NCBI GenBank assembly: GCA_010202845.1
Contig: CP047921.1
Location: forward strand, 690,001 to 722,000
Reading direction: 5' to 3'
DNA length: 32,000 nucleotides
Origin: Candidatus Saccharibacteria bacterium oral taxon 488
GTDB lineage: Bacteria; Patescibacteriota; Saccharimonadia; Saccharimonadales; Saccharimonadaceae
Part shown: positions 1,991 through 32,000 of the stretch, piece by piece
Layout of the letters: every line of letters starts with the position of its first letter
Position numbering within the stretch: the first letter of the stretch is position 1
The notes under the pieces: generated by a model
What the model was told of the DNA's origin: nothing
Databases searched by the model: none
The model's input: the letters and a program-made list of their open reading frames with translations, nothing else
Translations under genes and position numbers: made by a program

Positions 1991-1997
1991 CTTTTTT

Positions 1998-2026: not shown

Positions 2027-2033
2027 ACTGCTA

Positions 2034-2309: not shown

Positions 2310-2357
2310 ATATATCTCCTTGTTTGTTTCTATTAAATTGATATATGGAACAGATGA

Positions 2358-2579: not shown

Positions 2580-2624
2580 ACCTTTCCTTTGTTACTGTTT
2601 ATGTTTGTCGTATTGACTGTGGCT

Positions 2625-2653
2625 ATGATAGCATAGGCAGTTTGAAATGTCAA
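2625..2653 (-). promoter_or_regulatory. Near-consensus promoter of the DUF948-like/YtxH pair: TTGACA-17-TATCAT
   Basis: The reverse complement reads TTGACA (2653-2648), a 17-nt spacer and TATCAT (2630-2625). A ~40-nt leader carries an AAAGGAAAGG SD. Confidence 0.7.
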
Positions 2654-2673
2654 TAGCTTAGCGCTCTATTCTA

Positions 2674-3438
2674 TCACTTTGCAGCAATGAGGCCGTCCCG
2701 TCGCAGACCATCTAGTGCCGCCGCAAATCGCGGATCATCCTGTAGCTCGGCGGTGATTTCGGCCAGCGACCGACCGTCAACGTATCGACGCAAGATCTCG
2801 CCACGCATCTGACGGAGACTGCCAGTGAATTGTGATTGCTTGGTGTAATGACGACTGGCGGACAATTTACCCTTTCCCTGAGATTTGAGCTCACTACCAT
2901 AGTCCATCAGTGCCCAAAACCACTGACGCGGATTTGCCTGGTCCATCGTCCGCTCGACAATAGGCAGTATGTCACGATCCGCTACCGCCGTCTGGTCCGC
3001 AAAGAAATGATTGAGATAGACGGTGCGAATATTGGTCTCAATGAACGGCGTTGGTACTTGGTAAGTATAGTTCATGATAGCACCAGCAGTATTGACGCCA
3101 ATGCCCGGCAGCTGGACAAGGTCATGAAGGGTGGCCGCCAGAGCACCACCAGTGATAGCTCGCGCTGTTTGGTGAATGTACCGAGCACGGCGGTTATAGC
3201 CCAACCCCTGCCACGCGCGGAGCACCTCGGTCAGCTCGGCCGCTGCCAGCGACTCAATGTCTGGAAACTCTGTGGTAAATTCTGTAAACTTCGCCAAGAC
3301 GCGAGCAACTTGCGTTTGCTGCAACATCAGCTCACTCACCAGCACATAGTACAGGGTTGGCCGGTCACGCCATGGCATTGGCCGGTACAGTTCGCGGCCC
3401 TTTTGGTGGATCAGTCCCTGGAATTCATCAGTCGTCAT
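2674..3438 (-). CDS. HhH-GPD DNA glycosylase, MutY/Nth-like, cysteine-free and lacking a NUDIX-like C-terminal domain
   Basis: 'VSELMLQQTQVARV' (MutY-type catalytic Glu region) and HhH 'LVQLPGIGVNTAGAI'. The 254-aa protein has zero Cys residues. TATACT lies 6 nt upstream of the ATG. Confidence 0.75.
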   Translation of the reverse strand: MTTDEFQGLIHQKGRELYRPMPWRDRPTLYYVLVSELMLQQTQVARVLAKFTEFTTEFPDIESLAAAELTEVLRAWQGLGYNRRARYIHQTARAITGGALAATLHDLVQLPGIGVNTAGAIMNYTYQVPTPFIETNIRTVYLNHFFADQTAVADRDILPIVERTMDQANPRQWFWALMDYGSELKSQGKGKLSASRHYTKQSQFTGSLRQMRGEILRRYVDGRSLAEITAELQDDPRFAAALDGLRRDGLIAAK

Positions 3439-3478: not shown

Positions 3479-3487
3479 TGCTATAAT
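3479..3487 (+). promoter_or_regulatory. Extended -10 TGcTATAAT, 9 nt upstream of the VIT1 ATG 3497
   Basis: TG at 3479-3480, TATAAT at 3482-3487. No SD between the box and the ATG. Confidence 0.6.
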
Positions 3488-8218: not shown

Positions 8219-8227
8219 ATTATAGCA
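8219..8227 (-). promoter_or_regulatory. Extended -10 TGcTATAAT, 7 nt upstream of the aspS ATG 8211, containing the ruvB TAA stop
   Basis: The reverse complement of 8219-8227 is TGCTATAAT. The ruvB stop TAA (8222-8220) forms nucleotides 3-5 of the hexamer. Confidence 0.5.
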
Positions 8228-9224: not shown

Positions 9225-9233
9225 ATTATATCA
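9225..9233 (-). promoter_or_regulatory. Extended -10 TGaTATAAT, 6 nt upstream of the ruvB ATG 9218
   Basis: The reverse complement of 9225-9233 is TGATATAAT. No SD. Confidence 0.55.
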
Positions 9234-9800: not shown

Positions 9801-9829
9801 TTGCATAATTATAAATTATATTTTATAAT
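9801..9829 (+). promoter_or_regulatory. Promoter of the metzincin-like gene: TTGCAT-17-TATAAT, 10 nt to ATG 9840
   Basis: -35 at 9801-9806, -10 at 9824-9829. No SD. Confidence 0.65.
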
Positions 9830-9839
9830 TGTTATCGTT

Positions 9840-11177
9840 ATGAGCGAAAAGAGCAGCATGTCGACTAGTGATAAACCGAAAGAACTGCCATTACGAGTAA
9901 GAGTTCCGTGTGTAATACTAGGCGGGATAATAGGAGGGGTGACGGGTTTTGTGGGTTATAACCATATAGCTCATCGTAGCCCTAAACCTCAACCTGCAAC
10001 TGCAACCGCAATAATAACCGAAACCGTTCAGCCGGCTGAGCCGCTAGAGACACAGGGGCCATTTAGCCTGCCTGATATTCAACCTGTTATTATCACCGAC
10101 TCCTCAACAACAGAACAACATGTTGCCGAAGTAAGCAAACGCGCAAGAGCAGAACTTGATAGAGCCGAAGACATCCTAGCTACCACCATGGACGTCTCCA
10201 AGAGCACCGTTTATGAAGCAGTAACCATGCCAATGGATGAACAGCCAATTGATCCAGAAACAAAAAAGCCCTGCCCCCCTGTCGAAAAGATACGAGAAGT
10301 AGCCAATAAAATCCCCTCCCTCGGCGGTACAGCGATTCGCTATTTTATCCTGCCACCTCATTTATGCAACAACAATCAGTTCGGCGCCTACGCCCAATAT
10401 CACACACGAGACATCGTCACAAGATCAGACAATATGAATATCATCAACTCTGGCGTTATTATGCACGAAGCCGGACATTTGTTTGGACTGCCACACGTAA
10501 GAAGGTTGAGAATTGAACACCCAGACCTAAAAGATGAGGAATGGCATAATATCAAACCAGAAGATTACGATATTACCAATGATTTGCGAAATGGTTACGG
10601 TCAATTCCCTATGCAAGCAAATGGCAGCATCGATCCAGCATCCGGGAAAACAAGTGTCATGGGCTATCATTACGAAATTAACAGCTGGTGTCTTACGCAT
10701 GGAAGTTGTACTCACGTCTATAATGGACCCGAAAGAAACAAGCTCGACGGTGAAAAATTCCCGATCCGTGACGTTGACCCAGCAACATTGCGAGAGACTC
10801 CCGTTGACCTCGTAGTGTCTCCTGAGGCGCGCAATATTCAAGGTATCCGCGTTCCTGTGCCAGAAGATCATCCAATCCGCCACATTCGTGGCTGCGAGTC
10901 AGTCACCCATATTATCATTGGCGTTGATCACTTATATTATTCGGCCATCAACGGTAGCCCAGGCTTCACAACGTATGTTGTTGCCGTTGATCAGGACGAT
11001 AACCTCATTGAGATAGACGCACCGAAATTTGAAGAGTTGGCGTACTCGCCAACAGTATCAGATGAATTATTTGGTGAAAAACCGCAATATATCTACAATG
11101 ATAGTATGCTAGGCATCAGCGTTACCGCACGGCTTGTCAATAAGCAGGCTGTGCTGCGTATGACAGCGTTTAAGTGA
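9840..11177 (+). CDS. Membrane-anchored metzincin-like zinc metallopeptidase (hypothetical)
   Basis: 'HEAGHLFGLPH' = HEXXHXXGXXH at 10464-10496. Met-turn-like 'SVMGY' at 10653-10667. N-terminal TM 'VPCVILGGIIGGVTGFVGY'. Start placed at ATG 9840, 10 nt after a TTGCAT-17-TATAAT promoter. Confidence 0.65.
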   Translation: MSEKSSMSTSDKPKELPLRVRVPCVILGGIIGGVTGFVGYNHIAHRSPKPQPATATAIITETVQPAEPLETQGPFSLPDIQPVIITDSSTTEQHVAEVSKRARAELDRAEDILATTMDVSKSTVYEAVTMPMDEQPIDPETKKPCPPVEKIREVANKIPSLGGTAIRYFILPPHLCNNNQFGAYAQYHTRDIVTRSDNMNIINSGVIMHEAGHLFGLPHVRRLRIEHPDLKDEEWHNIKPEDYDITNDLRNGYGQFPMQANGSIDPASGKTSVMGYHYEINSWCLTHGSCTHVYNGPERNKLDGEKFPIRDVDPATLRETPVDLVVSPEARNIQGIRVPVPEDHPIRHIRGCESVTHIIIGVDHLYYSAINGSPGFTTYVVAVDQDDNLIEIDAPKFEELAYSPTVSDELFGEKPQYIYNDSMLGISVTARLVNKQAVLRMTAFK

Positions 11178-14190: not shown

Positions 14191-14199
14191 ATTATACCA
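14191..14199 (-). promoter_or_regulatory. Extended -10 TGgTATAAT, 6 nt upstream of the PBP ATG 14184, containing the ruvC TAA stop
   Basis: The reverse complement of 14191-14199 is TGGTATAAT. The ruvC stop TAA (14194-14192) forms nucleotides 3-5 of the hexamer. Confidence 0.5.
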
Positions 14200-14674
14200 C
14201 GCTGGGGCGCGTCATCGCTGCGTGGGTGATGGCCGCCGCCAGCGCATCGGCGCAGTCATCTGGTTTTGGTGCTTGGCTGAGGCCTAAGTTGAGGCGCACC
14301 ATTTCCTGAATCTGCTTTTTGTCAGCCTTGCCGTAGCCAGTCAGCGTCTGTTTGATCTGTAGCGGTGTGTATTCACTGATCACGAGGCCTGCCTTGTGTC
14401 CAGTCAGCATGGCCACGCCACGAGCATGGGCCACAGAAATAGCAGTGGTGACATTACGCGCAAAAAACAACTTTTCAATTGACATCACCTCAGGTCTGGT
14501 CTCAGCGATGATCTCCGTCAGGCCATCAAAAATCTCCGCCAGCCGCTCGTCCAGTGGCGTGTGCGCTGGCGTCTTGATCACACCAGCCGTCACCAGCCGG
14601 TAGCCGCCCCGCTTCGTGTCAATCACACCAAAGCCCAAGATACCAGTCCCCGGATCAATGCCAATAATTCTCAT
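14192..14674 (-). CDS. ruvC: Crossover junction endodeoxyribonuclease RuvC
   Basis: 'MRIIGIDPGTGILGFGVI', 'SIEKLFF', 'DCADALAAAITHA'. Start placed at ATG 14674 because TGcTATAAT ends 6 nt upstream. The ORF track starts at 14704. Confidence 0.9.
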   Translation of the reverse strand: MRIIGIDPGTGILGFGVIDTKRGGYRLVTAGVIKTPAHTPLDERLAEIFDGLTEIIAETRPEVMSIEKLFFARNVTTAISVAHARGVAMLTGHKAGLVISEYTPLQIKQTLTGYGKADKKQIQEMVRLNLGLSQAPKPDDCADALAAAITHAAMTRPSVV

Positions 14675-14680
14675 GCGTTT

Positions 14681-14689
14681 ATTATAGCA
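14681..14689 (-). promoter_or_regulatory. Extended -10 TGcTATAAT, 6 nt upstream of the ruvC ATG 14674
   Basis: The reverse complement of 14681-14689 is TGCTATAAT. No SD. Confidence 0.6.
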
Positions 14690-14744
14690 CCCGGCCGGTG
14701 ACAATAATTAATGCGAGGGCCACCTCGACGAGCTACTCACCAAA

Positions 14745-16574
14745 TTATCGCTTGCCGCGCGTGATGGCGTGTTTTAGCCAGGCAGCAGCTCGGCCGATTT
14801 CCCAGCGCCACTGCCAGCCAGCATAGCCAACCGCCAGCAGGCTGACGCCGCCGAGCACCCACCAGCCCCACATCGCACCCGTCACCTGCTTGACCTGCTC
14901 CGGCGCAAAGCCAGTTTTCGGTGCAGTAGCCAGCGCGACCTTGCGGCAGCGGCGGGTCTTTGGATTGCGCTCAAATCCTTCTGGACAATCTTTTAGGATG
15001 TCATCGGCGGCAGCGATTTTCTTGCAGCGGCCAGTTGCTGGGTTACGAAATTGACCATCAGGACATGGCTTTAACACTTTGGCGGCGGCTGAGGCGATTG
15101 AGCGACAGCGACCCGTCGCCTCGCTGCGATAATACCCTTCTTTACACGGCGTTACAGTCTTTGCTGCTTCGATTTTCCGACAGCGACGCGTTTCAGGATG
15201 CCGATATTGACCAATTGGACACGGCGCTAACACATCAGGCACAGCAGGTGGCACCGAAATCTTCACACATTTACCCAGTGCGTTACGCTCATAGCCATTC
15301 TGGCAGTCCGCATATTCCTTAAACACATTGGCAGCATTTTCAGTCACCGCAAACGTTTGCTTCCATTCCCCGTTAAATAAACTCCACGACGAGTCTTTGG
15401 CTAGACCGGCAAACGACGTCTGGTCAATTTCATTGCCGCTCTCGTCCAGCGCGTACACTTCACCGCCACCAGTTTTTGTTAATTTGAGGTTTGTCTCTGC
15501 CAGCCGAATGACATGCAGTGCCCCGGCCGCCAGCTCAATACTCCTGAACGTGTGCGTTGTGTCCTTATTCTTGCCTCGACCTTTCACGAGAATGGTGCAG
15601 CCCGTAAGGTCGAGATCGCTGATCCCGGCGTTAATAATCTCGATAAACGGCGCGTCGACATTGGTCGCGATCTCATGTAATTTCAAGCCACTGCAGCGAT
15701 TGATCGGTGGCGCCGGATCAACTGGCGGACGCGGTTCATCAGGCTCAGTACACGCCGGCAGTTCACGCAGGCGCGGCGCCTCGCCGACCGAAAAATCGCT
15801 AGCGTTATTATTCGTATCAGTCACCACGCCATTTATTTGGCAGCGCCAGGCGTGTAGCTTATCGTCCAGATTGATCGGGCTGCCTTCGCGCTCTGACGCC
15901 GCGCCCCAACCAACCAGATCCGACACCTGCCCATCACTCATCACCAATTTGACAGAACCGCCGGTTTTTGCCAGTACTTTCTTGCTATCAAACCGCAGGT
16001 CAGCCTGCTCATCGGTTAGCCGGCTATCACCGACCACCAACGCCCCGCCCGCCGGCACCATTAGGTCAGTCGATATTGTTTTAAGCACTGTCACATGCCC
16101 CTTTTGGTTAACATACTGCAGCGTCCAGCCAGCGATATTGACTGGCCCTGGCGACGGATTGTAGAGTTCGACGTACGCGCCGCGCGCTGTATCGAGGCCA
16201 ATTTTAGTGATCAAGAGTTTAGCCGATGTACGAGCCGCAGCTGGTGGTGCAGGAGGTTCGGAAGGCGTTGGCTTGGCCGGTGCGGGTGTCGATGGAGTCG
16301 TGGTCGGCGTTGACGGAGCGGGCGTAGACGTAGACGTACCGCCAGAAGCTGTGTCCGGCGTGGTCGCTACTGGGGCTAGTGGCTTGGTCGGAGCTGCCGA
16401 GCTGGGTACTGGATTGGCTGGACGCGGCGCGGGCGTATCCGTTGGCGCAACCGATGTCGAGCCACCAGCAGGAGGTGCAGCCTCTGGCGGGGAGTCGCTT
16501 GCAAACGCCACCACCGGCTGAAACACCAGCGCAATTATCGTTGACATAAGTAGTAGGCGGGTCAAAACCTTCAT
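14745..16574 (-). CDS. Secreted, C-terminally membrane-anchored surface protein with two lamin-tail domains (LTD) and five Cys-pair repeats
   Basis: Signal peptide '...VVAFA|SD', a P/T/A/S linker, LTD-like 'LLITKIG...AYVELYNPSPGPVNIAGWTLQY' and 'LKLHEIATNVDAPFIEIINAGISDLDLTGCTILV', 5 Cys repeats, TM 'WGWWVLGGVSLLAVGYAGW' and a basic tail. GGGAG SD. Confidence 0.75.
   Translation of the reverse strand: MKVLTRLLLMSTIIALVFQPVVAFASDSPPEAAPPAGGSTSVAPTDTPAPRPANPVPSSAAPTKPLAPVATTPDTASGGTSTSTPAPSTPTTTPSTPAPAKPTPSEPPAPPAAARTSAKLLITKIGLDTARGAYVELYNPSPGPVNIAGWTLQYVNQKGHVTVLKTISTDLMVPAGGALVVGDSRLTDEQADLRFDSKKVLAKTGGSVKLVMSDGQVSDLVGWGAASEREGSPINLDDKLHAWRCQINGVVTDTNNNASDFSVGEAPRLRELPACTEPDEPRPPVDPAPPINRCSGLKLHEIATNVDAPFIEIINAGISDLDLTGCTILVKGRGKNKDTTHTFRSIELAAGALHVIRLAETNLKLTKTGGGEVYALDESGNEIDQTSFAGLAKDSSWSLFNGEWKQTFAVTENAANVFKEYADCQNGYERNALGKCVKISVPPAVPDVLAPCPIGQYRHPETRRCRKIEAAKTVTPCKEGYYRSEATGRCRSIASAAAKVLKPCPDGQFRNPATGRCKKIAAADDILKDCPEGFERNPKTRRCRKVALATAPKTGFAPEQVKQVTGAMWGWWVLGGVSLLAVGYAGWQWRWEIGRAAAWLKHAITRGKR
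14913..15305 (-). repeat. Five tandem 25-28-aa Cys-pair repeats in the LTD protein (C-x2-G-x2-R-x5-6-C-[RKV]-[KS]-[IV])
   Basis: CQNGYERNALGKCVKI / CPIGQYRHPETRRCRKI / CKEGYYRSEATGRCRSI / CPDGQFRNPATGRCKKI / CPEGFERNPKTRRCRKV, each followed by a short Ala/Pro linker. Confidence 0.85.
16224..16496 (-). repeat. Pro/Thr/Ala/Ser-rich low-complexity linker (about 90 aa) of the LTD surface protein
   Basis: 'SPPEAAPPAGGSTSVAPTDTPAPRPANPVPSSAAPTKPLAPVATTPDTASGGTSTSTPAPSTPTTTPSTPAPAKPTPSEPPAPPAAA'. Confidence 0.85.
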
Positions 16575-20276: not shown

Positions 20277-20320
20277 GCACATGACGCGCAGCGCAACGAA
20301 GCGAGGACGCGACTTCTCAC

Positions 20321-20349
20321 ATTTTATCACAGAGAAGCGGCATTTTCAA
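20321..20349 (-). promoter_or_regulatory. Promoter of tRNA-Lys: TTGAAA-17-TGaTAAAAT
   Basis: The reverse complement reads TTGAAA (20349-20344), a 17-nt spacer and TAAAAT (20326-20321), about 40 nt upstream of the mature tRNA 5' end. It overlaps the stop of the upstream membrane-protein gene. Confidence 0.6.
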
Positions 20350-20837
20350 CGCTTTGTTTTCTTGGAGGCGGGCGCCTTGGCCTTGAGTGGCACACTCATA
20401 TCAAGCAGCCCCGCTACCAGCCCAACGGTCGCCGCATAGCGCCACCAGTCGCTCAGCAATTTGTATGTCTTCATCGCCTCCGCATCCAAGCTCATAAACT
20501 TGCCCAGTGGCCGCACCAGCATCGCCGCTGCTAGCACGCCGACTAGCACTGCCGAGATTAGCCGCAGTAACTTGCCAGGCCCCTTTGGCCCAGTAACTAA
20601 TAATAGCACCAGCGGCCCCACCGTCAAGATAATCGTCGCCACGACACCATTCGGTAGCCCTGCTACGTTACTGACGCCCAGCCCGCCGATCACCCCGGCC
20701 AGCCACTCCGCCCACAATTCCGCCAGCAGTGCGCTGGCCGCCAGTGACAGCGCCAACACGCCAAATCGCCGATTCAACACGAACACTAGTGCCGTCACCG
20801 CCACGGCCACGCCGCCAAACAACAACACCATGCTCAT
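20346..20837 (-). CDS. Hypothetical integral membrane protein (about 4 TM helices)
   Basis: 163-aa hydrophobic ORF. ATGA 4-nt overlap with the upstream DUF192 gene stop. Lys-rich C-terminus. No family recognised. Confidence 0.6.
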   Translation of the reverse strand: MSMVLLFGGVAVAVTALVFVLNRRFGVLALSLAASALLAELWAEWLAGVIGGLGVSNVAGLPNGVVATIILTVGPLVLLLVTGPKGPGKLLRLISAVLVGVLAAAMLVRPLGKFMSLDAEAMKTYKLLSDWWRYAATVGLVAGLLDMSVPLKAKAPASKKTKR

Positions 20838-21322
20838 CGCTGCGCCCCCGCACTAAACCGCGCAGTGACGCCCGGCTTGATACCATGCTCCTTGGCACTA
20901 CCCGCCGGCAGCTCTAACACGTACCGCGCCGGAACTGGCGTGTGATATACCTCATGCGGCTCATTGTCAGGCCAGACATCACGCTTGACGTGCACGACCT
21001 TTTTCTTGGCATCTAGCCAGATAATATCAATCGGGACGCGCATACCCTTCATCCAAATTGGTATATCACCGTCTTTCTCGGCCACGAACAACATCCCCTC
21101 GCTCTTACCCAGCTCCTGCCAACCGCCCAAGCCTCGCGCCCGCGTCTCGTCCGTATCAGCGACCTCCACTCGAAATGTACCCTTGCCGATGTCAACAGTC
21201 GTGTACGTTTTATTCATCTGGCGCGCCACCGCCCATACGCCGTAGCCGATCCCGGCCAACACGCCGAGCACGATCACCCAAACGATGATCCGCTGCACTA
21301 TCGACACCGACTTCGCATTCAT
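20834..21322 (-). CDS. DUF192-domain protein with N-terminal membrane anchor
   Basis: 'ETRARGLGGWQELGKSEGMLFV...IPIWMKGMRVPIDIIWLD' matches the DUF192 pattern (GL..R....GMLF...WM.....P.D..). TGcTATAAT ends 6 nt upstream of the ATG. Confidence 0.75.
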   Translation of the reverse strand: MNAKSVSIVQRIIVWVIVLGVLAGIGYGVWAVARQMNKTYTTVDIGKGTFRVEVADTDETRARGLGGWQELGKSEGMLFVAEKDGDIPIWMKGMRVPIDIIWLDAKKKVVHVKRDVWPDNEPHEVYHTPVPARYVLELPAGSAKEHGIKPGVTARFSAGAQR

Positions 21323-21328
21323 ACTCCC

Positions 21329-21337
21329 ATTATAGCA
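21329..21337 (-). promoter_or_regulatory. Extended -10 TGcTATAAT, 6 nt upstream of the DUF192 ATG 21322
   Basis: The reverse complement of 21329-21337 is TGCTATAAT. Confidence 0.55.
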
Positions 21338-21346
21338 AGTTTATCT

Positions 21347-22264
21347 TCAGGCGCCGACTTTATCTTTTTTGTTACCGCGCTTGGCGTTGCGATTAATATA
21401 ATCAATAATCCGACCAGCCACATTGCGGCCCGTCACCTTTTCGATGCCAAATCCTGGGCTGGCGTTCACTTCCAACACCAACGCGCCACGACTTGAGCGC
21501 ATAAAATCAACGCCGGCTACCACCAAGCCCATCGCCTTGGCGGCTTTGACGCACATTTTTTGCTCATCAGGCGTCAACTTGATAGCCGTCCCCTCGCCAC
21601 CTTTGTGTAAATTACTGCGAAAATCATCATCCAAGCTCTGCCGCTTCATACTGGCCACCACTTGACTACCGACCACAAACGCCCGAATATCGGTGCCGGC
21701 CGACTCTTTGATAAATTCCTGCAATAGCACGTTTGTGCCGTCAGAATTGCTGAGATAAAACGCCTGCATGACCGACTTGGCGGCCTTGATCGTCTCCGCC
21801 AGCACTACACCGTTGCCATGCGTGCCGCGCGCCAACTTGATGATCGCTGGCGTACCGCCAATCTCGTCTAGTAGCACGTCAATATCGGTTTCGTTGCGTG
21901 AGAACACTGTCTTTGGAATTGCTACGCCAGCCCGCGCTAGTAACTGCGTCGAGCGCAGTTTATCCCGCGCCCGCGTAATGGCGATTGACCGATTCATAAA
22001 AAACGCCTGCGGATTCGCCATCTCCAGCTGTCGCAATACCGCCGTCCCGTAGCGCGTCATATAACTAGCAATCCGCGGGATGAACACATCGAAATTATCA
22101 ACCTCCTTACCGCGATAAATAACCTTCGGATGCTGCTCGTCAATTGACACGTAGCAGTTTTTATACTTGATAACCTTAATTTGATGACCGCGTTTTTCGG
22201 CCTCTTCTCTGAGGCGGAGGGTGGAGTAGTTAATATTACCGTTACTGAGGATTGCAATTTTCAT
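21347..22264 (-). CDS. rimK: RimK-type ATP-grasp alpha-L-glutamate ligase
   Basis: Collinear with E. coli RimK as I recall it: 'MKIAILS', 'YGTAVLRQLEM', 'ARDKLRSTQLLARAGV', 'GVVLAET', 'DIRAFVVG', 'DFRSNLHKGG', 'VAGVDFMRSSRGALVLEVNASPG'. Confidence 0.9.
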   Translation of the reverse strand: MKIAILSNGNINYSTLRLREEAEKRGHQIKVIKYKNCYVSIDEQHPKVIYRGKEVDNFDVFIPRIASYMTRYGTAVLRQLEMANPQAFFMNRSIAITRARDKLRSTQLLARAGVAIPKTVFSRNETDIDVLLDEIGGTPAIIKLARGTHGNGVVLAETIKAAKSVMQAFYLSNSDGTNVLLQEFIKESAGTDIRAFVVGSQVVASMKRQSLDDDFRSNLHKGGEGTAIKLTPDEQKMCVKAAKAMGLVVAGVDFMRSSRGALVLEVNASPGFGIEKVTGRNVAGRIIDYINRNAKRGNKKDKVGA

Positions 22265-22266
22265 GA

Positions 22267-22776
22267 CTACTTATCCTTTGGCTTATGGTATTTTTTATAA
22301 AATTTGTGGGGATTCTTTGCCAGCTCCTTATTCAGTACTTTGTTATCGGTAGCATATTTGTATCGATGCGCCGCATCACCCTCACGCACATCAACCAAGA
22401 ACTTGCCCGCAACAGTACGACGTCCTATTAGAACTGGGTAGAGATTACCAGAACGATCCGAGAGGTTAAATAGTGCTTTAATTTTACGCCCCTTGATAGT
22501 CACGGTAAAATGTGTTCTATAGCGAATTTGCTCATGTCCAGATGAGCTGCGTACCATTGCTACAGTGAAATCCGTTCGCTTGAAAATCTTCCCGTTATAG
22601 TAAGGCGAGCCTTTGCCGAATAGGGCAAACTTTAACACACCATCTTTATCAACACGAATATTGCTCGCCCATACCGATGAGCTGTCTGCACCAGTATCAA
22701 CTTTGGCCGATATGCCAATAGCCCGCCGACCAAAATCAACACGGACATTTCGTCCAATAACCTGCCTAGCCAACAT
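22267..22776 (-). CDS. Retropepsin-like aspartic protease of the RimK-associated family (PF05618-type, RimB-like)
   Basis: 'AKVDTGADSSSVWA' with D-T-G-A at 22687-22698. Size and position (2 nt upstream of rimK) fit the family. ATG 22776 overlaps the upstream gene by 11 nt. Confidence 0.7.
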   Translation of the reverse strand: MLARQVIGRNVRVDFGRRAIGISAKVDTGADSSSVWASNIRVDKDGVLKFALFGKGSPYYNGKIFKRTDFTVAMVRSSSGHEQIRYRTHFTVTIKGRKIKALFNLSDRSGNLYPVLIGRRTVAGKFLVDVREGDAAHRYKYATDNKVLNKELAKNPHKFYKKYHKPKDK

Positions 22777-23683
22777 CAATACCTACCATTTCTAGAAGCA
22801 TCTCACTATATTTTCTCACTTTCTCATCCTGAAACGCACCAGAGGAAACCTGCGGTGCATTATTGACCTCCAGCAAATACGACTTATTGTTGGTACTGTC
22901 AAACATCACGTCAACACCCGCAACTTGCAGCCTCGCGATAGATGCAGCTTTAACGCAGACATCAATAACTTCGGGCGAAACCGACTCGATCGGTACGACC
23001 TGTGCGACACCACCTTGAGAAGTGTTGTTAAGATGTGAGCCGTCGACACCCTTGCGTTCAATTACTAAAACTGGCTTACTGTTAAAAACCAACACCCGCA
23101 AATCGCCAGAGTTTGGAATAAACTCCTGCAAGACAAATCGTTTGTCTGGGTACTGCTTTTGGATATCGCTAATCTCTGCGACCGACTCAACTAAAAAATT
23201 TGAACGACCCTTTGAGCCTTCATTGTCTTTCATAATTGCCTTTCCGCCAAACTCTGGAAAGCGTCGGATCATTTCATCTATATTACCATAAAAGGTGTGT
23301 GGCCAATTTTTAATACCATTAAACCACAGTAAAAATTGTGTACTTATCTTATTATCCAGCATTAGCCGATTCAAGTACTCGTCTGTATAACGAATGCCAA
23401 AATACTCACAATACTGCACAATAGCCTGAGCTTCATTCGCCATCTTACCAATATGACGAATGACAACCAAATCAAAATCACGAAGATCAAACTTCTTCTG
23501 AGAGTGATAGATATTAATTGCATATGCACTTAACTCAAAAAATAGCTCAGATATTTCACAGTGTTCAATCTCAACACTCTCCCCGATACTATTTTGTACA
23601 CGGCTAGCAAAACCTCCAGCCTTGCCCCTTGCTTCTTCGCTCACCGCTCGTGCTATCAGTAAGACTTTCTTTTTACTCTTCAT
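22766..23683 (-). CDS. Divergent RimK-like ATP-grasp ligase (second paralog, unknown specificity)
   Basis: ATP-grasp landmarks: 'DNKISTQFLL', 'GGKAIMKDNEGSKGRSNFLV', 'FVLQEFIPNSGDLRVLVF', 'HLNNTSQGG', 'VAGVDVMFDSTNNKSYLLEVNNAPQV'. Alignable with the adjacent RimK but clearly divergent. Confidence 0.75.
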   Translation of the reverse strand: MKSKKKVLLIARAVSEEARGKAGGFASRVQNSIGESVEIEHCEISELFFELSAYAINIYHSQKKFDLRDFDLVVIRHIGKMANEAQAIVQYCEYFGIRYTDEYLNRLMLDNKISTQFLLWFNGIKNWPHTFYGNIDEMIRRFPEFGGKAIMKDNEGSKGRSNFLVESVAEISDIQKQYPDKRFVLQEFIPNSGDLRVLVFNSKPVLVIERKGVDGSHLNNTSQGGVAQVVPIESVSPEVIDVCVKAASIARLQVAGVDVMFDSTNNKSYLLEVNNAPQVSSGAFQDEKVRKYSEMLLEMVGIDVG

Positions 23684-23725
23684 TTACAGGATCCCTTTCT
23701 GTGGCTTTTTAATAAATTATATGGG

Positions 23726-25042
23726 TTATTGTATGTCGTAGGAAATATGGTCTGGATTTGTTGGATCATAACGTACGCTAAGAATATGACGCAATTTTTC
23801 TAGCCTTTCTTCTTCTGGAAGTCGGGCAATATCATTCAACCAGCCAGCGGCTTTTTGTGCACCCACAAAATATGCACTATCACGCGTATCAATTGCGCCG
23901 CCGCGACGGGTACGATGAACCTGACGTTGAGCATTTGAGCGAGCCTTATCAATATCTACCACACCACCATTTTGCTCCATCAACAACACTTCACGCCGCC
24001 AAAGAATTTCGAATGTCTCACGATAATTACGCGGATCACCGCCTCGATCGGCACCTGCCTGCAGACCAATTGATAAATAATACTGCTTGCCGGGAACACG
24101 TTTTTGACCCGTAATAACCTGTTCTAGACACGTTGCCAAACCCTCTTCAAAATCTAGCCCACCAGGACCACTTCCCCGACCACCATGAACCACCGCCTCA
24201 TGAAATGCAACACCTATAGCGGCTAGCTCATTAGGAAAATCTGCCCGGTTCTCACCATAGTATACCGTTTTCTCACGAATACTTGTGTGTGCTGATTTAC
24301 CCGAATCTAGTTGTACACTCCATTCTTCTGGCAACCCAGCGACCTGTATCACTGCTTTACAAACATCAATAGCCTTATCCACGGGCACCGGCTCTTTAGA
24401 TGCCTTATCAATCATGGAGCCAATCTCTGGATATATATTTCTTAAGTCATCATGAATAATTTTCATAGTTTCATCATTTAGCCCAAGCACCTCATGGCCA
24501 CCCTCATCAATAGGCTGTTTTTCAAGAAGACTCAACAGTTCAGTCGCCTCTTTACGCTGCGAATTACTCACCAAATCAATTAACTCGTTTACCATCGCAG
24601 CAAAAGCCGGTTTATCAATACCTCCCATAATATCTAGCGACAACTCTGCAGCTAAACGGCGGTGCTCAAGGCAATCTGATGATGCTACCGACCCAAGAGC
24701 CAACTGCAACTCCTCGTAACGAAACAGTTCGCCCGTCTTGCGAATGATTTTATCTATTAGTTCTTCATGTGTCTGTGATCGATCCTCAGATGGAGTGCGC
24801 ATTAGTTCATTAAGGAGGCCCTCATAGAGCTCAATCGTCTCTTTAACCGTCTCTGTGTTGTGTCGTCCGTCCATCATCTGCCGTGGTTCGGTTAAGTCTG
24901 GATTATTAAGAAATTCATGAATTCTATTCTGACGTTCAGTAGCACTAGTGTTCAGGTTAAGGTAATGCTCATAGCCAGGTGTCGCTGTAAAAGGATTTTG
25001 GTCAAATATCTGTTTTTTAGAATCTATTGTACTAGTTACCAT
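23726..25042 (-). CDS. DUF1704/MATCAP-like metallocarboxypeptidase (QEGLA-motif family), tentative
   Basis: 'FHEAVVH' (HEXXXH, 24185-24202) followed 13 aa later by 'EEGLA' (24134-24148). 438 aa from ATG 25042. TTGTAT-17-TATTAT promoter ends 7 nt upstream. Confidence 0.6.
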   Translation of the reverse strand: MVTSTIDSKKQIFDQNPFTATPGYEHYLNLNTSATERQNRIHEFLNNPDLTEPRQMMDGRHNTETVKETIELYEGLLNELMRTPSEDRSQTHEELIDKIIRKTGELFRYEELQLALGSVASSDCLEHRRLAAELSLDIMGGIDKPAFAAMVNELIDLVSNSQRKEATELLSLLEKQPIDEGGHEVLGLNDETMKIIHDDLRNIYPEIGSMIDKASKEPVPVDKAIDVCKAVIQVAGLPEEWSVQLDSGKSAHTSIREKTVYYGENRADFPNELAAIGVAFHEAVVHGGRGSGPGGLDFEEGLATCLEQVITGQKRVPGKQYYLSIGLQAGADRGGDPRNYRETFEILWRREVLLMEQNGGVVDIDKARSNAQRQVHRTRRGGAIDTRDSAYFVGAQKAAGWLNDIARLPEEERLEKLRHILSVRYDPTNPDHISYDIQ

Positions 25043-25049
25043 AGCTAAT

Positions 25050-25078
25050 ATAATAACATAAATCTTATAATAATACAA
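25050..25078 (-). promoter_or_regulatory. Promoter of the MATCAP-like/ATP-grasp/protease/rimK cassette: TTGTAT-17-TATTAT, 7 nt to ATG 25042
   Basis: The reverse complement reads TTGTAT (25078-25073), a 17-nt spacer and TATTAT (25055-25050). No SD. Confidence 0.55.
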
Positions 25079-25204
25079 TATAGTAGTCCTGGCCGAACAA
25101 CCCCCTCCTCACACCGTCAAACCACCCTAGCAATCGCCCCTACGTTTTGATTAGCTTAGTCGTCATACAACAAACGTCGACGACGTTGTAATAACACTCT
25201 TAAG

Positions 25205-28200
25205 TTATTTCTGTTTACCCCCTTGTCTTCTCGCTACCACAACCACCACTGCCGTGATAATCGATAGTCCGGCCAGAATAGCCAGCGCATAAGCATAGCC
25301 TGACAGCAGATAAATTAAAGCCAACGTCACGCCGACAGCGCCCCAGATAGTAATCAGTCGCCTGCCGAGCGCCAAACCGATGATAACCATCAGCGAATGC
25401 TCGACTAAGAACAATATCTTCATAACATTGTCCCCCGCTAGCGCCAGGACAAGGGTTGATAAACTAAATACAGCGAGCGCTAGTGCTAAGTGCGCAATGG
25501 TAGATATCTGAGTATATCCTAGCCAGCGCCAGGACATCACCGCCCCCGACAAAATTGCCACTGAACAGAGATATGGCATCACGATACTATGAATCGGTAC
25601 AATTAGCATATGAACCGTAAACAGAATACCACACAGCACCAAAAGAACACCCGAGTCGAAGTATAGAAGACTCTTCTTCGGCAACCCCTCAGCTATTAGG
25701 GCGCTGCCATTGACCGCCCACATTAGTGTTACTAGCAGTACCGCCTCCGTTGCGACACTGGCCGGCATAGCCATCAGCAGTAAAGTCATCGACCAGCCGA
25801 TAGCACTCCAAAATGATGCATAATACCAATAAACTGATAATTTCTTGGTTCGCGCAGTCACGGCGGCGCCATAAAACACCGCAAAGATAATTAGTGAAAC
25901 GATCGACATAAACTCAAGCTTAACGCCGAGCCATTGTGCAGTTAAGTAGAATAACAATACCAAACTTGGATGCGCCAATATCGCCATCGGCCGCCAATCC
26001 TGCTTGGCATACACTACCATATAAAGTGCCGCGACAGCTGCCAACCAGCCCAAGATTTTGAACGGTAATCCATACGTCGTCAATAGATTTATCATCGGTA
26101 ATATCACCGCTGGTACCGTAGCAGCCAGCAGAGTCATATCGCTAGTGATTGACGCTCGCTTATTCATCGCTAACGACCAATATACTACCCCGAAGCCGAC
26201 GAGCACCACCCAAGCAGTGATAGTGAAATTGTCGCTTAGCGGCACGCGTAGCCAATGCAAGAACAGCAACACCAAAGCAATTGTCGCCAAGTATGCTCCG
26301 CCCAGATAACCATCCTCACGCCGCCGATAAAACGCATAGTACAGCAGCGCTACTAACGGCAGCCAAACCGCCGGATGAATAGACGAAAAGATGATCAAGA
26401 TAGCCGCTCCAATAGCAGAATATAACAACAATTCGCGGCACTTAACCGCCGCCTCTTTGCGGTAATTATACAGCCACTCTACCAATAGTAGCAACGACAA
26501 GCCGTTCAGCCACGCCATCAAAATGGCAATATCTTCGCCAGCAATCTTGAAATACGAAGCTATCAGCAGTGCCATCAGAAGTAGAGAAGCATGAATACCA
26601 ATCACTAGACCGTAAGCTTTCTCACGCCACGCAGCGATACCCATGATGACAGCAGCAACCGCCACCGAATCTGACAGATACAGCATGCCTTCTCCTGCTG
26701 GATAAGCAGTCAAAAAAGCTAAGGCTATAAACACTGTCATTAACCACCAAGCGGCCGCAGCGCCGTACACTAGTATTGCTTGACTTTTAGTAATATTTGG
26801 GCGCTTCAAAACCAGTAATCGGCAGACAACCGGCAGGAAAGTCATAAGCATAAAGATAGAGTAATGTGTATGCAAGGTTGTTATGGGATCGAGGCTAAAT
26901 AGCCTGACGCCAGCCGGCACTAACAAAATTCCAGACATTACTACCATGCCGCCAAAACGGGCGCGGCGCAGCAATGAAAGCGCCATAAAACTCACTACCG
27001 AAACCATACTCAACAGGATAAATATGATCATATCTCTTAGCGGACTTTCGACGCCAGCTATAGTCGATACAGCAGCCAGCGACGCAACGAAACTAATCCA
27101 CAACACTATTTCGTGCTGCTTGTCGGGCTGCTTTTGGGCATACATCGACCTGATAGACCAAATTATATTACCAAGTGCCGCCACACCCAGCGCTATACCT
27201 GTGACCAGACCATCATTATTTGACAGATACATAGTAAAACTAGCAGTCGCCGCCATCAGCAGCACGCGCGCCGTCGTTAGTTCATACGTGCGCATATCCT
27301 TTGATTTTTCAACAAAAGCAACAGTAAAATAATATATAACGCTGATGAGCAGCAGCATGCTGACGTCAAGCGTTCCCATATGCACCGACGAACCGATAGC
27401 GAGAAGCAAAGTGGACGGGACGATAAACGGATTAACCAGCGTCAACGGCTCGGTGAATTGGCGCGGAAAACGATTAGAAAAATACGCAGCCAAGGTCATC
27501 AGGCATCCGAACAATAGCACCGCAGCATAATACCACACCAACTGAGCATGCATAACAGCCGGCAAGCTGGTCGTCATCGTAAACATCGACAGCAGCGAAA
27601 TATAGGCGAGCGGTTGGCTATTGAGCCTGACTGTAGCATCCACGCATAAGAAAGTGCCGATGAAGGAAGTGGCAAGCCAACACAGCGCTGGATCAATCCC
27701 CAAAAGCAAGTGCATGCTCCAGCCGCCGATCGGCACAGCAGCCAGCGCCGTACCAATAAACGCCGTTGAGGCCGGCTTTAAGATCGGTAATCTAGCGTAT
27801 AACACCTGGCCAGTAACATAATAGACAAAAATAAACAGCCAGACCAAACTAAACCTGAGCTGCGCCGAAAGTTCAATCGTTTGTGCCAATAATAATATAC
27901 CGGCGGTTAGCAATAATGATGCCGTATAGAGCGCCACATTGATGGTAGTTTGACGATTTTTCTCTTTTTCTTTATTGCTGACAGGGGATAGCCGCTCGAC
28001 AATCTGTGTCTTTTCGTCGGGAATATTAGTCTTTCCTTCAATTGGCGCGGCATCAGTAGGTGGCGCAGCATCAGGCTCTTCCTCTTCGTCGCCAATTAGC
28101 ACAAGACCAGTAGACTGCGAAGCTGCAGCCTGATTCTCGGTAATAAGCTTGGCTTGACCGTCGCTACCTTCAATTTTCGCACGGCCATTCTGCGCATCGC

Positions 28201-28318
28201 ACACGCCGTCCCAATAACCGCGCTGATAATCCTCAGATTGACGAGACAGCCGATTACCGCCTCCCTGCGCCACCTTAATTATCACGATGATAATCACTAA
28301 CAGAAAAATTAATTCCAT
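25205..28318 (-). CDS. Very large polytopic membrane protein (1037 aa, on the order of 25-30 TM helices), unknown function
   Basis: N-terminal TM, then a ~120-aa soluble segment ('DYQRGYWDGVCDAQNGR', acidic 'GDEEEEPD'), then almost continuous hydrophobic helices to the C-terminus. AAGGGGA SD and TGcTATACT upstream. Confidence 0.7.
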   Translation of the reverse strand: MELIFLLVIIIVIIKVAQGGGNRLSRQSEDYQRGYWDGVCDAQNGRAKIEGSDGQAKLITENQAAASQSTGLVLIGDEEEEPDAAPPTDAAPIEGKTNIPDEKTQIVERLSPVSNKEKEKNRQTTINVALYTASLLLTAGILLLAQTIELSAQLRFSLVWLFIFVYYVTGQVLYARLPILKPASTAFIGTALAAVPIGGWSMHLLLGIDPALCWLATSFIGTFLCVDATVRLNSQPLAYISLLSMFTMTTSLPAVMHAQLVWYYAAVLLFGCLMTLAAYFSNRFPRQFTEPLTLVNPFIVPSTLLLAIGSSVHMGTLDVSMLLLISVIYYFTVAFVEKSKDMRTYELTTARVLLMAATASFTMYLSNNDGLVTGIALGVAALGNIIWSIRSMYAQKQPDKQHEIVLWISFVASLAAVSTIAGVESPLRDMIIFILLSMVSVVSFMALSLLRRARFGGMVVMSGILLVPAGVRLFSLDPITTLHTHYSIFMLMTFLPVVCRLLVLKRPNITKSQAILVYGAAAAWWLMTVFIALAFLTAYPAGEGMLYLSDSVAVAAVIMGIAAWREKAYGLVIGIHASLLLMALLIASYFKIAGEDIAILMAWLNGLSLLLLVEWLYNYRKEAAVKCRELLLYSAIGAAILIIFSSIHPAVWLPLVALLYYAFYRRREDGYLGGAYLATIALVLLFLHWLRVPLSDNFTITAWVVLVGFGVVYWSLAMNKRASITSDMTLLAATVPAVILPMINLLTTYGLPFKILGWLAAVAALYMVVYAKQDWRPMAILAHPSLVLLFYLTAQWLGVKLEFMSIVSLIIFAVFYGAAVTARTKKLSVYWYYASFWSAIGWSMTLLLMAMPASVATEAVLLVTLMWAVNGSALIAEGLPKKSLLYFDSGVLLVLCGILFTVHMLIVPIHSIVMPYLCSVAILSGAVMSWRWLGYTQISTIAHLALALAVFSLSTLVLALAGDNVMKILFLVEHSLMVIIGLALGRRLITIWGAVGVTLALIYLLSGYAYALAILAGLSIITAVVVVVARRQGGKQK

Positions 28319-29577: not shown

Positions 29578-30129
29578 ATGAAACGAACAGCAATTATCAA
29601 TTCAGAAATCAAGGCCCGGTGCGCGGATCAAGAGTCGGTGCGCCACTATCTACGTGAGCACGGCGCGGACTTTAAGGGGACCGACCATCAAATTGACACG
29701 TATTTTCATGTACCCGAGGGGCGCCTGAAACTACGTCAAGGGCCGATCGAAAATAACCTTATCTTTTATCAGCGGGCCGATACCAATGGGCCAAAACAAT
29801 CGACTATCAACTTATCACCCGTGGCGCCGGACTCAACTATTGGCGAGGTGCTAACAGCGGCGCTTGGTGTGCGTGTGGTTGTTGATAAGCAGCGCGAGAT
29901 TTACTTCATCGACAATGTCAAGTTTCATATCGACACCGTTAAGGGTCTCGGGAATTTTGTCGAAATTGAAGCTATCGACACCGACGGTAAACGAAACGCC
30001 GAGGAGCTGGAGCAGCAATGCTCACACTACATGCGTGAACTTGGTATCAAGGATACGGATTTAGTGGTTGGCTCGTATAGTGATTTGCTGGAGGGTGCAG
30101 CTCTTTCCGAGTTAGCCGCAAACAATTGA
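29578..30129 (+). CDS. CYTH-domain protein / class IV (CyaB-like) adenylate cyclase
   Basis: 'NSEIKARC', 'HQIDTYFHVPEGRLKLRQ', 'LIFYQR', 'KQREIYFIDNVKFHIDTVKGLGNFVEIEA' fit the CyaB/CYTH pattern as I know it. GGAGG SD and TGcTATACT upstream. Confidence 0.7.
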   Translation: MKRTAIINSEIKARCADQESVRHYLREHGADFKGTDHQIDTYFHVPEGRLKLRQGPIENNLIFYQRADTNGPKQSTINLSPVAPDSTIGEVLTAALGVRVVVDKQREIYFIDNVKFHIDTVKGLGNFVEIEAIDTDGKRNAEELEQQCSHYMRELGIKDTDLVVGSYSDLLEGAALSELAANN

Positions 30130-30218: not shown

Positions 30219-32000
30219 CTACTTCTCGTCAACCACCTCGCCCTCGACTGGCTCATCCTTGTCAGACTTTTTATCGTCCTTGGACTCATCAGTCTTGTTG
30301 TCCTCAGCAGCTTGCTGATACATCTTGGCGCCGATTGGCATGATGGCATCCTGCAGTGCTTTGGCTGCTGCTTCCAGCTCGTCTTTGTCGTCAGCGTCTT
30401 TGTGCTTTTCCGCTTCCTTAACCGCTTCGTCAATCGCCTTCTTGTCGTCGTCAGAAATCTTATCCTTAAACTCGTCTGGCATTTTCTTTGCCTGATAGAT
30501 GGCGTTTTCTAGCTGGTTTTTGGCGTCAACCGTTTCACGCTTTTTCTTGTCCTCGTCAGCGTGTAGTTCGGCTTCTTTCTGGGCTTTTTCAATATCTTCC
30601 TTACTCATGTTACCAGAGTTTTGGATGGTGATTGATTGCTCCTTGCCAGTACCCTTGTCCTTAGCCGTAACATTGAGGATGCCGTTAGCGTCGATATTGA
30701 ACGTCACTTCAATCTGCGGCACGCCGCGCGGTGCTGGCGCGATGCCGTCAAGCACAAAACGACCCAAACTCTTGTTGTCATTGGCAAATTCGCGCTCACC
30801 CTGCAAGACGTGAATCTCCACTTGCGGCTGGTTATCGGCAGCCGTCGAGAATACTTCGCTCTTGCTGGTCGGCACGGTGGTATTGCGCTCGATCAGCTTG
30901 GTCGACACACCGCCCATCGTCTCGATACCAAGACTGAGCGGCGTCACGTCCAGCAGCAGCACGTCCTTGACGTCGCCTGCCAACACGCCGCCTTGAATAG
31001 CTGCACCGACAGCCACCACTTCGTCTGGATTGACTCCCTGCATCGGGTCTTTGCCAAACAATTTCTTCACCCGCTCGACCACTGCTGGCATACGGGTCAT
31101 ACCGCCAACCATGACGACATTATTGATGTCAGATTTGCTGAGTTTGGCGTCTTTGAGCGCCTTCTCGACCGGACCGTCCAAACGCGCCAACAAATCTTTC
31201 ACCAAATCTTCCAACTTCGCCCGCGTCAGGCTCAGTTCAAAGTGCTTTGGCCCATCAGCATCAGCGGTGATGAATGGAATGTTAACTTCGTATTCAGTGA
31301 CTGTCGATAGCTCCTTCTTGGCCTTTTCGGCTTCGTCCTTCAGGCGCTGCATGGCTGCATTGTCTTTGCGTAGGTCGATGCCTTCTTTAGACTTAAAGTC
31401 ATCCAGGAAATAGTTAACGATGATATTGTCAAAGTCCTCACCGCCCAGGTGAGTGTCGCCATTCGTGGCCTTCACCTCAAACACGCCGTCGCCCAATTCC
31501 AACACCGACACGTCGAAGGTACCACCGCCAAGGTCAAACACCACGATAGTTTCGTCATTTTTGCCTTTCTCCAGGCCGTACGCCAAAGCAGCGGCCGTCG
31601 GCTCATTAATGATGCGCTTAACTTCCAGGCCGGCGATTTTACCAGCGTCTTTGGTCGCCTGGCGCTGCGAATCGTCAAAGTAGGCTGGCACGGTGATGAC
31701 TGCTTCGGTGACTTTTTCGCCGAGGAACGCCTCGGCGTCGGCCTTGATTTTGCCGAGAATCATGGCTGAAACTTCTTCTGGCGTGTATTCCTTGCCACCC
31801 ATTTCCACGGCCACACCCGCACCTTTCTTGACGATCTTAAACGGCATGAGGCCACGGTCTTTTTGGACTTCTTTGTCATCAAACTTACGGCCAATAAAGC
31901 GCTTGACACCATAAATTGTATTCTTTGGATTAGTCACACGCTGACGCTGCGCCACTTGTCCGACCAAGCGTTCGCCCTTTTTATTAATCGCTACCACTGA
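30219..32000 (-). CDS. dnaK: Molecular chaperone DnaK (Hsp70), 5' end beyond the window
   Basis: '[20 protein letters not shown]', '[12 protein letters not shown]', '[13 protein letters not shown]', C-terminal 'EGEVVDEK'. About 45 N-terminal residues are missing at the window edge. Confidence 0.95.

Follow-up and report, generated by a model that had tools for sequence, protein, structure and literature searches.

We describe here a cassette of four genes on the minus strand of a 32,000-nucleotide stretch of the genome of Candidatus Saccharibacteria bacterium oral taxon 488 (contig CP047921.1, positions 690,001 to 722,000; hereafter the window, in which all positions are counted from its first letter). 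The cassette encodes two ATP-grasp ligases and two peptidases, and we think it rather probable that it is an expanded Rim-type system, a leaderless four-gene operon that would build and remove short acidic peptide tails on a C-terminal carboxylate. By analogy with characterised enzymes, the four proteins most likely represent two writers and two erasers, one eraser endo-acting and the other exo-acting, of C-terminal tails that would probably consist of poly-alpha-glutamate. In their order on the minus strand, all in the same direction, the genes are:

23726 to 25042, minus strand: MATCAP-like gene, 438 amino acids (aa), from the open reading frame (ORF) list, with a start supported by homologues
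22766 to 23683, minus strand: ATP-grasp2, the second ATP-grasp ligase, 305 aa, from the ORF list
22267 to 22779, minus strand: RimB-like retropepsin, 169 or 170 aa, starting at ATG 22776 or TTG 22779
21347 to 22264, minus strand: rimK, 305 aa, from the ORF list

The original prediction, made from the DNA letters of the window, had placed four co-directional minus-strand genes at these coordinates, and this is what we find. The junctions that it gave are also borne out by the sequence, with a gap of 42 nt, an overlap of 11 nt (ATGTTGGCTAG) and a gap of 2 nt, and the HEAVVH, EEGLA and DTGA motifs that it named are all present. The longest ORF of the MATCAP-like gene opens at TTG 25078, but alignment with homologues favours ATG 25042. 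The overlap between ATP-grasp2 and the retropepsin gene is 11 nt from ATG 22776, or 14 nt from TTG 22779, and purine-rich, Shine-Dalgarno-like stretches lie upstream of all three internal genes. The four proteins are identical to NCBI records QHU94117-QHU94120 (4/4, exact matches), in which the 438-aa protein and ATP-grasp2 are labelled 'hypothetical protein'. Because each protein has strong homologues and an exact match in the public record, we take the four ORFs to be true genes and not chance ORFs. Related contigs from metagenome-assembled genomes have the same arrangement as the window. The RimB and ligase domains are not joined in one polypeptide here, as they are in a RimBK hybrid, but are encoded by two separate ORFs that differ in frame. 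We considered whether the 11-nt overlap might reflect a fusion gene broken up by a frameshift in the assembly and rejected this, because the same stop occurs on independent contigs (a 99% identical protein, P0227, stops identically; nine contigs) and the exact protein is present in an NCBI genome record.

RimK is an ATP-grasp ligase that appends Glu units to ribosomal protein S6 at its C-terminus. The claim that the last gene of the cassette encodes a canonical RimK is supported by direct hits to PF08443 (5.4e-57, 192.9 bits) and to the N-terminal pre-ATP-grasp domain PF18030 (3e-31, 108 bits), and by a score above the cutoff of the rimK_fam model TIGR00768 (254.7 bits; cutoff 143.4). The protein aligns end to end with the solved RimK structures of Pseudomonas and E. 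coli (7qyr, 2.7e-88; 4iwx, 3e-85), and RimK identity is 60-73% among distant Saccharibacteria. The neighbouring retropepsin is, as had been proposed, of the PF05618 type: it hits the Pfam model directly (44.6 bits; cutoff 27), and its catalytic DTG is intact, D28-T29-G30 aligning with the DTG of PDB entries 2pma and 9g59. In Pseudomonas RimB the corresponding motif contains the essential, catalytic D31, and the enzyme strips Glu from polyglutamylated RpsF, for which it needs about five Glu residues, while it stimulates RimK and boosts the synthesis of poly-alpha-glutamate that RimK carries out (PMC11957791). By its context the retropepsin is RimB-like, though it is not RimB at the level of an equivalog. 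Its pI is 10.4 and that of RimK is also basic. A simple hydrophobicity window count found no signal peptide or transmembrane (TM)-like segment in any of the four proteins, and all four look cytoplasmic.

The second ligase had been described as a divergent ATP-grasp, and our analysis agrees. ATP-grasp2 is RimK-like, with a match to PF08443 at 3.5e-16 and a score under the rimK_fam cutoff, and the residues K112, K152, Q186, D194, R196, R210, N220, D258, E272 and N274, which it has in common with RimK, are kept across 30 relatives. All ATP/Mg residues are conserved, and we regard the ATP/Mg site as complete. Its substrate-loop motifs, H-L-N-N-T-S-x-G-G and N-x-x-P-Q-x-x-x-G, are its own and are invariant (in the window HLNNTSQGG and NAPQVSSGAF). 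ATP-grasp2 is orthologous to the ligase half of RimB::ligase fusion proteins, in a family of 427 clusters. In a Foldseek search with its AlphaFold (AF2) model (pLDDT 90.7), RimK is nearest, including the RimK-RpsF complex 5zk6, followed by ArgX/LysX; synapsin, PsnB and GshB are further hits in the top 50, and TTL is not among these 50. PF03133 (TTL) matches locally at residues 253-283 with 27.9 bits, an extent that does not place ATP-grasp2 in the TTL family. RimK and LysX/ArgX ligate onto a protein C-terminal carboxylate. The original prediction had drawn an analogy with tubulin glutamylation and detyrosination. The MATCAP eraser family is common to both, but ATP-grasp2 is nearer to RimK and LysX/ArgX than to TTL, and the tyrosination analogy is therefore functional only.

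The presence of PsnB-type graspetide ligases and LysX/ArgX among these structural neighbours, together with weak hits of RimK to graspetide maturase models, raises the idea of a cluster for a ribosomally synthesised and post-translationally modified peptide (RiPP) of the graspetide type, or of an amino-group-carrier cluster of the LysW/LysX type, in which the ATP-grasps would modify a small precursor or carrier and the peptidases would mature or release it. We give this idea hardly any credence. No ORF of 20-90 aa, intergenic or with an acidic C-terminus, is present in 20300-25300, the scores against graspetide and LysX models fall far under their cutoffs, and neither lysine or arginine biosynthesis genes nor a transporter were found nearby.

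The original prediction implied that the 438-aa product of the first gene belongs to DUF1704/PF08014, and this holds only in an indirect form: there is no direct hit, and the relationship appears in profile-profile comparison. PDB sequence searches with the protein and with its family profile returned nothing relevant, so that an intermediate profile was needed for the MATCAP link. A word-indexed search gave 29 close clusters, for which the sole named source is Saccharibacteria and one member of which is annotated as PF08014; two of the 29 close relatives match PF08014 (best E 7e-13). An exhaustive profile search with the family reached 989 cluster representatives, and nine of ten distant hits that were sampled match PF08014 (eight of them above the gathering score), the same nine also matching TIGR02421 'QEGLA'. 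An hhalign comparison of the 438-aa family with 20 PF08014 proteins gave a probability of 100% and an E value of 2.9e-54 over 389 columns, with the motifs aligned, and the profile of PF08014 proteins in turn matched human MATCAP (7z5g; E 1.8e-7) with HEIGTH and EEGLA in register. We therefore consider the protein to be a divergent subfamily of the MATCAP/DUF1704 superfamily that does not itself pass the Pfam model, and a subfamily that we have so far seen only in Saccharibacteria-type contigs.

MATCAP/TMCP1 has an HExxxH plus an EEG motif, the latter supplying the third metal ligand (PMC10499314). Both motifs are common to the 438-aa protein and to MATCAP/TMCP1-2 (KIAA0895L/KIAA0895), PF08014 and TIGR02421. 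The active site is complete: H281, E282 and H286 (HExxxH) and E300-G301 (EEG), together with nine arginines, are invariant in 29 aligned sequences. The AF2 model is confident (pLDDT 89.5, pTM 0.86), and the Foldseek search with it ranked M32 metallocarboxypeptidases and MATCAP first, albeit weakly. By analogy the protein is predicted to be a C-terminal exopeptidase. The eukaryotic enzymes trim C-terminal Tyr and also Glu from acidic tails and shorten polyglutamate chains, and are thus deglutamylases as well (PMC10499314). The 438-aa protein differs from them in being bacterial, in having no tubulin substrate and in being set in a rim operon.

The original prediction had named a lack of co-conservation in relatives as a point that would refute it, but the four genes are conserved together. 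In the loci that we sampled (L numbers below) all four components occur together in every Saccharibacteria locus of sufficient length, fusions included. The split layout, with the ligase gene followed by the retropepsin gene, is found in the window, in L001, L017-L019 and L012 (47% identity), while L004-L008, L010 and L011 have a fused retropepsin::ligase protein of about 440 aa. In L009 the order is rearranged, the ligase gene lying upstream of the gene for the MATCAP-like protein; the L009 contig breaks off inside the retropepsin gene and does not reach rimK. Fusions in the opposite order, ligase::retropepsin, of 448-472 aa, also exist in the ATP-grasp2 family (P0312, P0314). We regard it as strong evidence for a joint action of the retropepsin and ATP-grasp2 that they are fused in both orders and kept through rearrangement. 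In two loci of more distant Saccharibacteria, L013 and L014, the position behind dnaJ is taken by a PF08014 gene that Pfam does recognise, and RimB-like and RimK genes follow downstream of it. Some cassettes have extra genes (L009 3087-4052; L012 4839-5795, minus strand; L013 7341-8935; L014 8357-9550, minus strand), among them genes for a GNAT acetyltransferase and for an additional ATP-grasp, the third, of the D-Ala-D-Ala-ligase-like or ATP-grasp_4 kind, and L013 has a 331-aa protein with no Pfam hit and an ATP-grasp-like E-x-N motif.

These comparisons bear on the possibility that the gene order is simply frozen and that the four genes are neighbours of unrelated function. The synteny from dnaK/dnaJ to comEC exceeds the cassette, and the first three genes differ sharply from rimK in GC content at third codon positions (GC3), having values of 0.35-0.42 where rimK has 0.61 and the genes on either side have 0.53-0.75. 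The set nevertheless persists while its internal order changes (L009 versus L012 versus L005), the junctions are tight or overlapping behind one promoter, and a PF08014::ATP-grasp fusion exists in another lineage. A change of gene order combined with protease-ligase fusion in either order argues for functional coupling, and we hold mere neighbourhood to be very improbable. The cassettes of the relatives are homogeneous in GC3, unlike the compositional step in the window, in which the first three genes resemble a block derived from a Saccharibacteria lineage of lower GC, set beside a host-like rimK. Compared with L018/L019, the window RimK is 87% identical and the adjoining DUF192 protein (20834-21322) 36% identical, a difference that points to recombination with its breakpoint immediately behind rimK, at the promoter of DUF192.

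Two loci from outside the phylum also combine PF08014 with ATPgrasp_ST and a 7TM-transglutaminase: in L015 it is fused to the former and lies beside the latter, and in L016 it adjoins both. The L015 protein (1100-3433; 777 aa, ATPgrasp_ST, PF14397, plus MATCAP, PF08014) comes from a locus whose DNA is not an exact translation match of the query. At another PF08014 locus, L022, no ligase was found within 4.3 kb, and we conclude that the pairing of PF08014 with an ATP-grasp ligase is not universal; a further locus, L021, is truncated and uninformative. The company that PF08014 keeps in L015 and L016 is one reason to consider that the cassette could be an envelope-directed system acting on a cell-wall or surface peptide, in the manner of RloABC or of the ATPgrasp_ST/7TM-transglutaminase/DUF1704 cassettes. 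Membrane-protein genes flank the cassette, MurT/GatD is nearby in relatives, and the retropepsin scores slightly better against the RloA3 equivalog (42.9 bits; cutoff 210) than against RimB. However, no 7TM-transglutaminase (PF14402) was found in the window or in the Saccharibacteria loci examined, none of the four proteins has a detectable signal peptide or TM-like segment, ATP-grasp2 is nearer to RimK (PF08443) than to ATPgrasp_ST, and the large membrane protein upstream is missing in most relatives. An envelope-directed role thus seems to us improbable.

The promoter of the cassette and the limits of the transcription unit were identified from the following features:

25050 to 25078, minus strand: promoter with -35 TTGTAT at 25078-25073, a 17-nt spacer and -10 TATTAT at 25055-25050, read from the sequence
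21329 to 21337, minus strand: the next extended -10, TGCTATAAT, 6 nt before the DUF192 start (21322); downstream boundary
25173 to 25187, minus strand: terminator-like hairpin just past the stop of a 1037-aa gene; upstream boundary, weak and from a consensus scan only

Further examples of the motif TGNTATWAT in the window, besides those at 21329-21337 (minus) and 25050-25058 (minus), are:

8219 to 8227, minus strand: TGNTATWAT site
9225 to 9233, minus strand: TGNTATWAT site
14191 to 14199, minus strand: TGNTATWAT site
3479 to 3487, plus strand: TGNTATWAT site

The TTGTAT-17-TATTAT promoter that was originally claimed is present at 25078-25050, but its -35 is weak and the real signal is an extended -10, TGTTATTAT (25058-25050, minus strand), which lies 7 nt upstream of ATG 25042. 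A generic sigma-70 promoter scan of the window does not list this promoter, because its -35 fits the consensus at only 3 of 6 positions. The placement of the -10 at 7 nt from the ATG implies a leaderless or near-leaderless cassette mRNA, with a transcription start predicted at 25042 +/- 1. A TGnTATAAT-type element is found 6-9 nt 5' of the orthologous start codon in L002, L005, L009 and L012, with an additional perfect TTGACA in L012, and a weaker version precedes the start in L004. In L005 the element is kept even though the cassette gene starts only about 30 nt past dnaJ. The window holds 17 copies of the motif TGNTATWAT where 2.3 are expected (7.5-fold; none of 100 shuffles reaches 17), and copies lie 6-7 nt before the starts of aspS, ruvB, a penicillin-binding protein (PBP) gene (PBP1) and the DUF192 gene. 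The number and placement of these copies point to frequent leaderless mRNAs, and leaderless transcription is apparently a genome habit. Inside the cassette, on the minus strand between 25050 and 21337, the motif was not found. We read the cassette as a four-gene unit with one promoter, bounded after rimK by the promoter of the DUF192 gene. The DUF192 gene was considered as a further member of the operon and is rejected for now, since a separate extended -10 lies 6 nt ahead of this gene's start; read-through is possible. Elsewhere in the window, the RuvC ORF (14192-14704, minus strand) is listed from TTG 14704, yet TGCTATAAT lies inside it at 14689-14681 and the RuvC Pfam match starts at residue 13. 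The true start of RuvC is for these two reasons probably about 10 codons downstream of the listed TTG, and leaderless.

In the mechanism that we propose for the cassette, RimK would put alpha-linked glutamates on a protein C-terminus, with S6 as the default candidate target, and may perhaps also produce free poly-alpha-glutamate. ATP-grasp2 may start the tail on a C-terminus not usable by RimK; alternatively, it may add another residue or use another acceptor. A retropepsin dimer, bound to a ligase, would cut poly-Glu endolytically and modulate that ligase, like RimB of Pseudomonas. The MATCAP-like enzyme would then trim the leftover C-terminal residues singly, in the way that eukaryotic TMCP/MATCAP enzymes treat the tails of tubulin, and so complete the erasure and recycle the glutamate. 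The original proposal of a system that writes and erases tails is supported at the level of families, active sites and conservation, and the tests of these points that might have refuted it did not; the function, target and chemistry of the modification, including the residue added, we infer by analogy.

Several observations weigh against this reading. The cassette is known here from sequence and predicted models only. RimK scores 324.2 bits against NF007764, the equivalog of the S6--L-glutamate ligase, for which the cutoff is 331, and the retropepsin scores 35.4 bits against the RimB equivalog NF052261, for which the cutoff is 200. The 438-aa protein has no Pfam or NCBIfam match at E <= 0.1. 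In the structural comparison MATCAP is among the top Foldseek hits of a confident model, but the match itself is weak (TM 0.21-0.27, E 4e-3 to 1e-2). Synteny is kept well beyond the cassette, from dnaK/dnaJ on the upstream side to DUF192 and comEC on the downstream side, which makes adjacency by itself weak evidence; it is the fusions and rearrangements that carry the argument. No rpsF was found among the window ORFs, and S6 is a default candidate only. Finally, the RimBK hybrid of D. psychrophila was proteolytically active and failed to glutamylate Pseudomonas RpsF (PMC11957791), from which it follows that ATP-grasp2 may not act on S6.

Some of the same observations are shared by the main rival of tail modification, namely that the ligases make free poly-alpha-L-glutamate or a short acidic peptide, as an osmolyte, a glutamate or nitrogen store or an envelope part, which the peptidases recycle, so that no protein is tagged. 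RimK does make poly-alpha-glutamate and RimB stimulates it (PMC11957791). A pair of an endo- and an exopeptidase fits the recycling of a polymer, none of the window's proteins terminates in Glu-Glu, and RimK falls slightly below the S6-ligase cutoff. A store could also be of use to Saccharibacteria, which are auxotrophic for amino acids. On the other hand, the nearest structural relatives of both ligases work on protein C-termini, the characterised enzymes of the MATCAP family act on protein tails (PMC10499314), and the polymer and protein modes are not exclusive in Pseudomonas. We see free-polymer metabolism as a serious but distinctly less likely explanation. The only markedly acidic C-terminal tail among the window ORFs is that of DnaK (30219-31997, minus strand), about 5 kb upstream of the cassette; it ends in Lys and is not, for that reason, an obvious acceptor of the RimK type.

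The original prediction considered the system surprisingly elaborate for a reduced genome. It is less unprecedented than that suggests, since the literature already has write-erase by RimK and RimB, as well as RimBK hybrids (PMC11957791), and elsewhere PF08014 likewise occurs paired or fused with ATP-grasp ligases. In the Rim module of Pseudomonas, RimK with RimB, with or without RimA, polyglutamylates RpsF/S6 (PMC4741518, PMC7343187, PMC11957791). The cassette resembles this module in having a RimK with its N-terminal domain beside a cytoplasmic PF05618 DTG retropepsin, in its tight gene spacing and in its write/erase logic. It differs in lacking RimA, an EAL phosphodiesterase, and in having a second ligase and a MATCAP-like peptidase in addition. 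The Saccharibacteria retropepsin is, moreover, tied by fusions to the second ligase and not to RimK, and the host has a reduced epibiont genome. The RimBK hybrids (Desulfotalea psychrophila DP2392; mostly Flavobacteriales and Rhodobacterales; PMC11957791) join RimB and a RimK-like ligase in one polypeptide, as do most Saccharibacteria relatives. Accessions with both rimBK and a separate rimK make up 0.9% of those containing rim genes (PMC11957791), and the Saccharibacteria relatives with the fused pair carry a separate rimK too, like that class. In the window, unlike in the hybrids, the halves are separate overlapping genes with the ligase first, and the ligase half is divergent, with its HLNNTSQGG loop.

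A second group of comparable systems is formed by the ATPgrasp_ST/7TM-transglutaminase/peptidase cassettes (RloABC of P. aeruginosa, PMC12239564; our L015 and L016), which likewise pair a ligase with a retropepsin or with PF08014, including by fusion. The window cassette has, in contrast, no 7TM inactive transglutaminase (RloB) and no secreted protease, and its ligases are RimK-type. The third is the tail code of tubulin (TTL/TTLL; CCP, VASH, MATCAP), in which ATP-grasp ligases add residues and metallocarboxypeptidases remove them. The MATCAP family is shared with it, but the ligases of the window are RimK/LysX-like, and the relation is one of analogy plus one common family, not that of an orthologous system. 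That ATP-grasp ligases of bacteria come together with peptidases which reverse their tags, in a way comparable to TTL systems, is a general idea that dates from 2009-2012 (PMC3495828). The eukaryotic MATCAP/TMCP enzymes were identified as tubulin tail carboxypeptidases and deglutamylases only in 2022-2023. TIGR02421 proteins reportedly neighbour TIGR02291 RimK-related ligases. In the literature searched we found no report of Saccharibacteria together with RimK or of KIAA0895L together with ATP-grasp, nor any that gives bacterial PF08014/DUF1704 proteins a function. Three further points appear to be undescribed in that literature: the constant presence of a MATCAP-superfamily peptidase in a rim operon, its phylum-wide retention in Saccharibacteria, and the RimB-ligase pair in its split and permuted forms.

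The surroundings of the cassette vary among relatives. Between dnaJ and the cassette the window has a gene (25205-28318, minus strand) for a 1037-aa protein with long hydrophobic stretches, apparently a polytopic membrane protein, with no Pfam hit. It has a counterpart in L002 (1042 aa), and in L012 its position is held by a 1130-aa gene without a Pfam hit; in most other relatives the gene is absent and the cassette lies directly 3' of dnaJ. Downstream of rimK, the window, L004, L005, L007, L010 and L012 all have a gene for DUF192 (COG1430), whose N-terminus carries a hydrophobic segment. In the window (20346-21322, minus strand, for both genes), L004, L005, L007 and L012 the next gene encodes a small, hydrophobic protein of some 160 aa that lacks a Pfam match. 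Between dnaK and dnaJ, but on the other strand, the window has a CYTH-domain gene (29578-30129, plus strand). Further away, the window encodes a 609-aa protein with lamin-tail domains (14745-16574, minus strand) and a 458-aa protein with a weak match to a gametolysin (M11) peptidase (9801-11177, plus strand). A scan of the window with Rfam found only a tRNA-Lys, and PADLOC gave no hits there, leaving an anti-phage defence role without support.

If the proposed tail modification is correct, bacterial DUF1704 proteins would gain a specific and testable function as exo-erasers of acidic tails written by ligases, and the Rim paradigm of ribosome modification would be extended beyond Proteobacteria. 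The cassette also suggests a reason for hybrids of the RimBK type to occur alongside a separate RimK. More tentatively, and with considerable doubt, we speculate that the cassette may embody a tail code with two writers and two erasers, in which ATP-grasp2 would be an initiase or capping enzyme that puts the first residue, or one other than Glu, on a protein C-terminus out of RimK's reach, RimK would elongate poly-Glu, the retropepsin would cut long tails and the MATCAP-like enzyme would remove the last residues or the cap. Bacterial PF08014 proteins would then, in general, be dedicated exo-erasers of the tails that ATP-grasp ligases write, and it is from ligase-peptidase operons of this kind that the eukaryotic MATCAP arm of the tubulin code would have evolved. 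The cassette offers a small experimental system, with four soluble-looking proteins that are each shorter than 450 aa, and oral Saccharibacteria of this group grow in co-culture with a host bacterium. That four genes are kept for this system in an 853-kb genome, in a phylum of sub-megabase genomes, implies that it matters to these epibionts.

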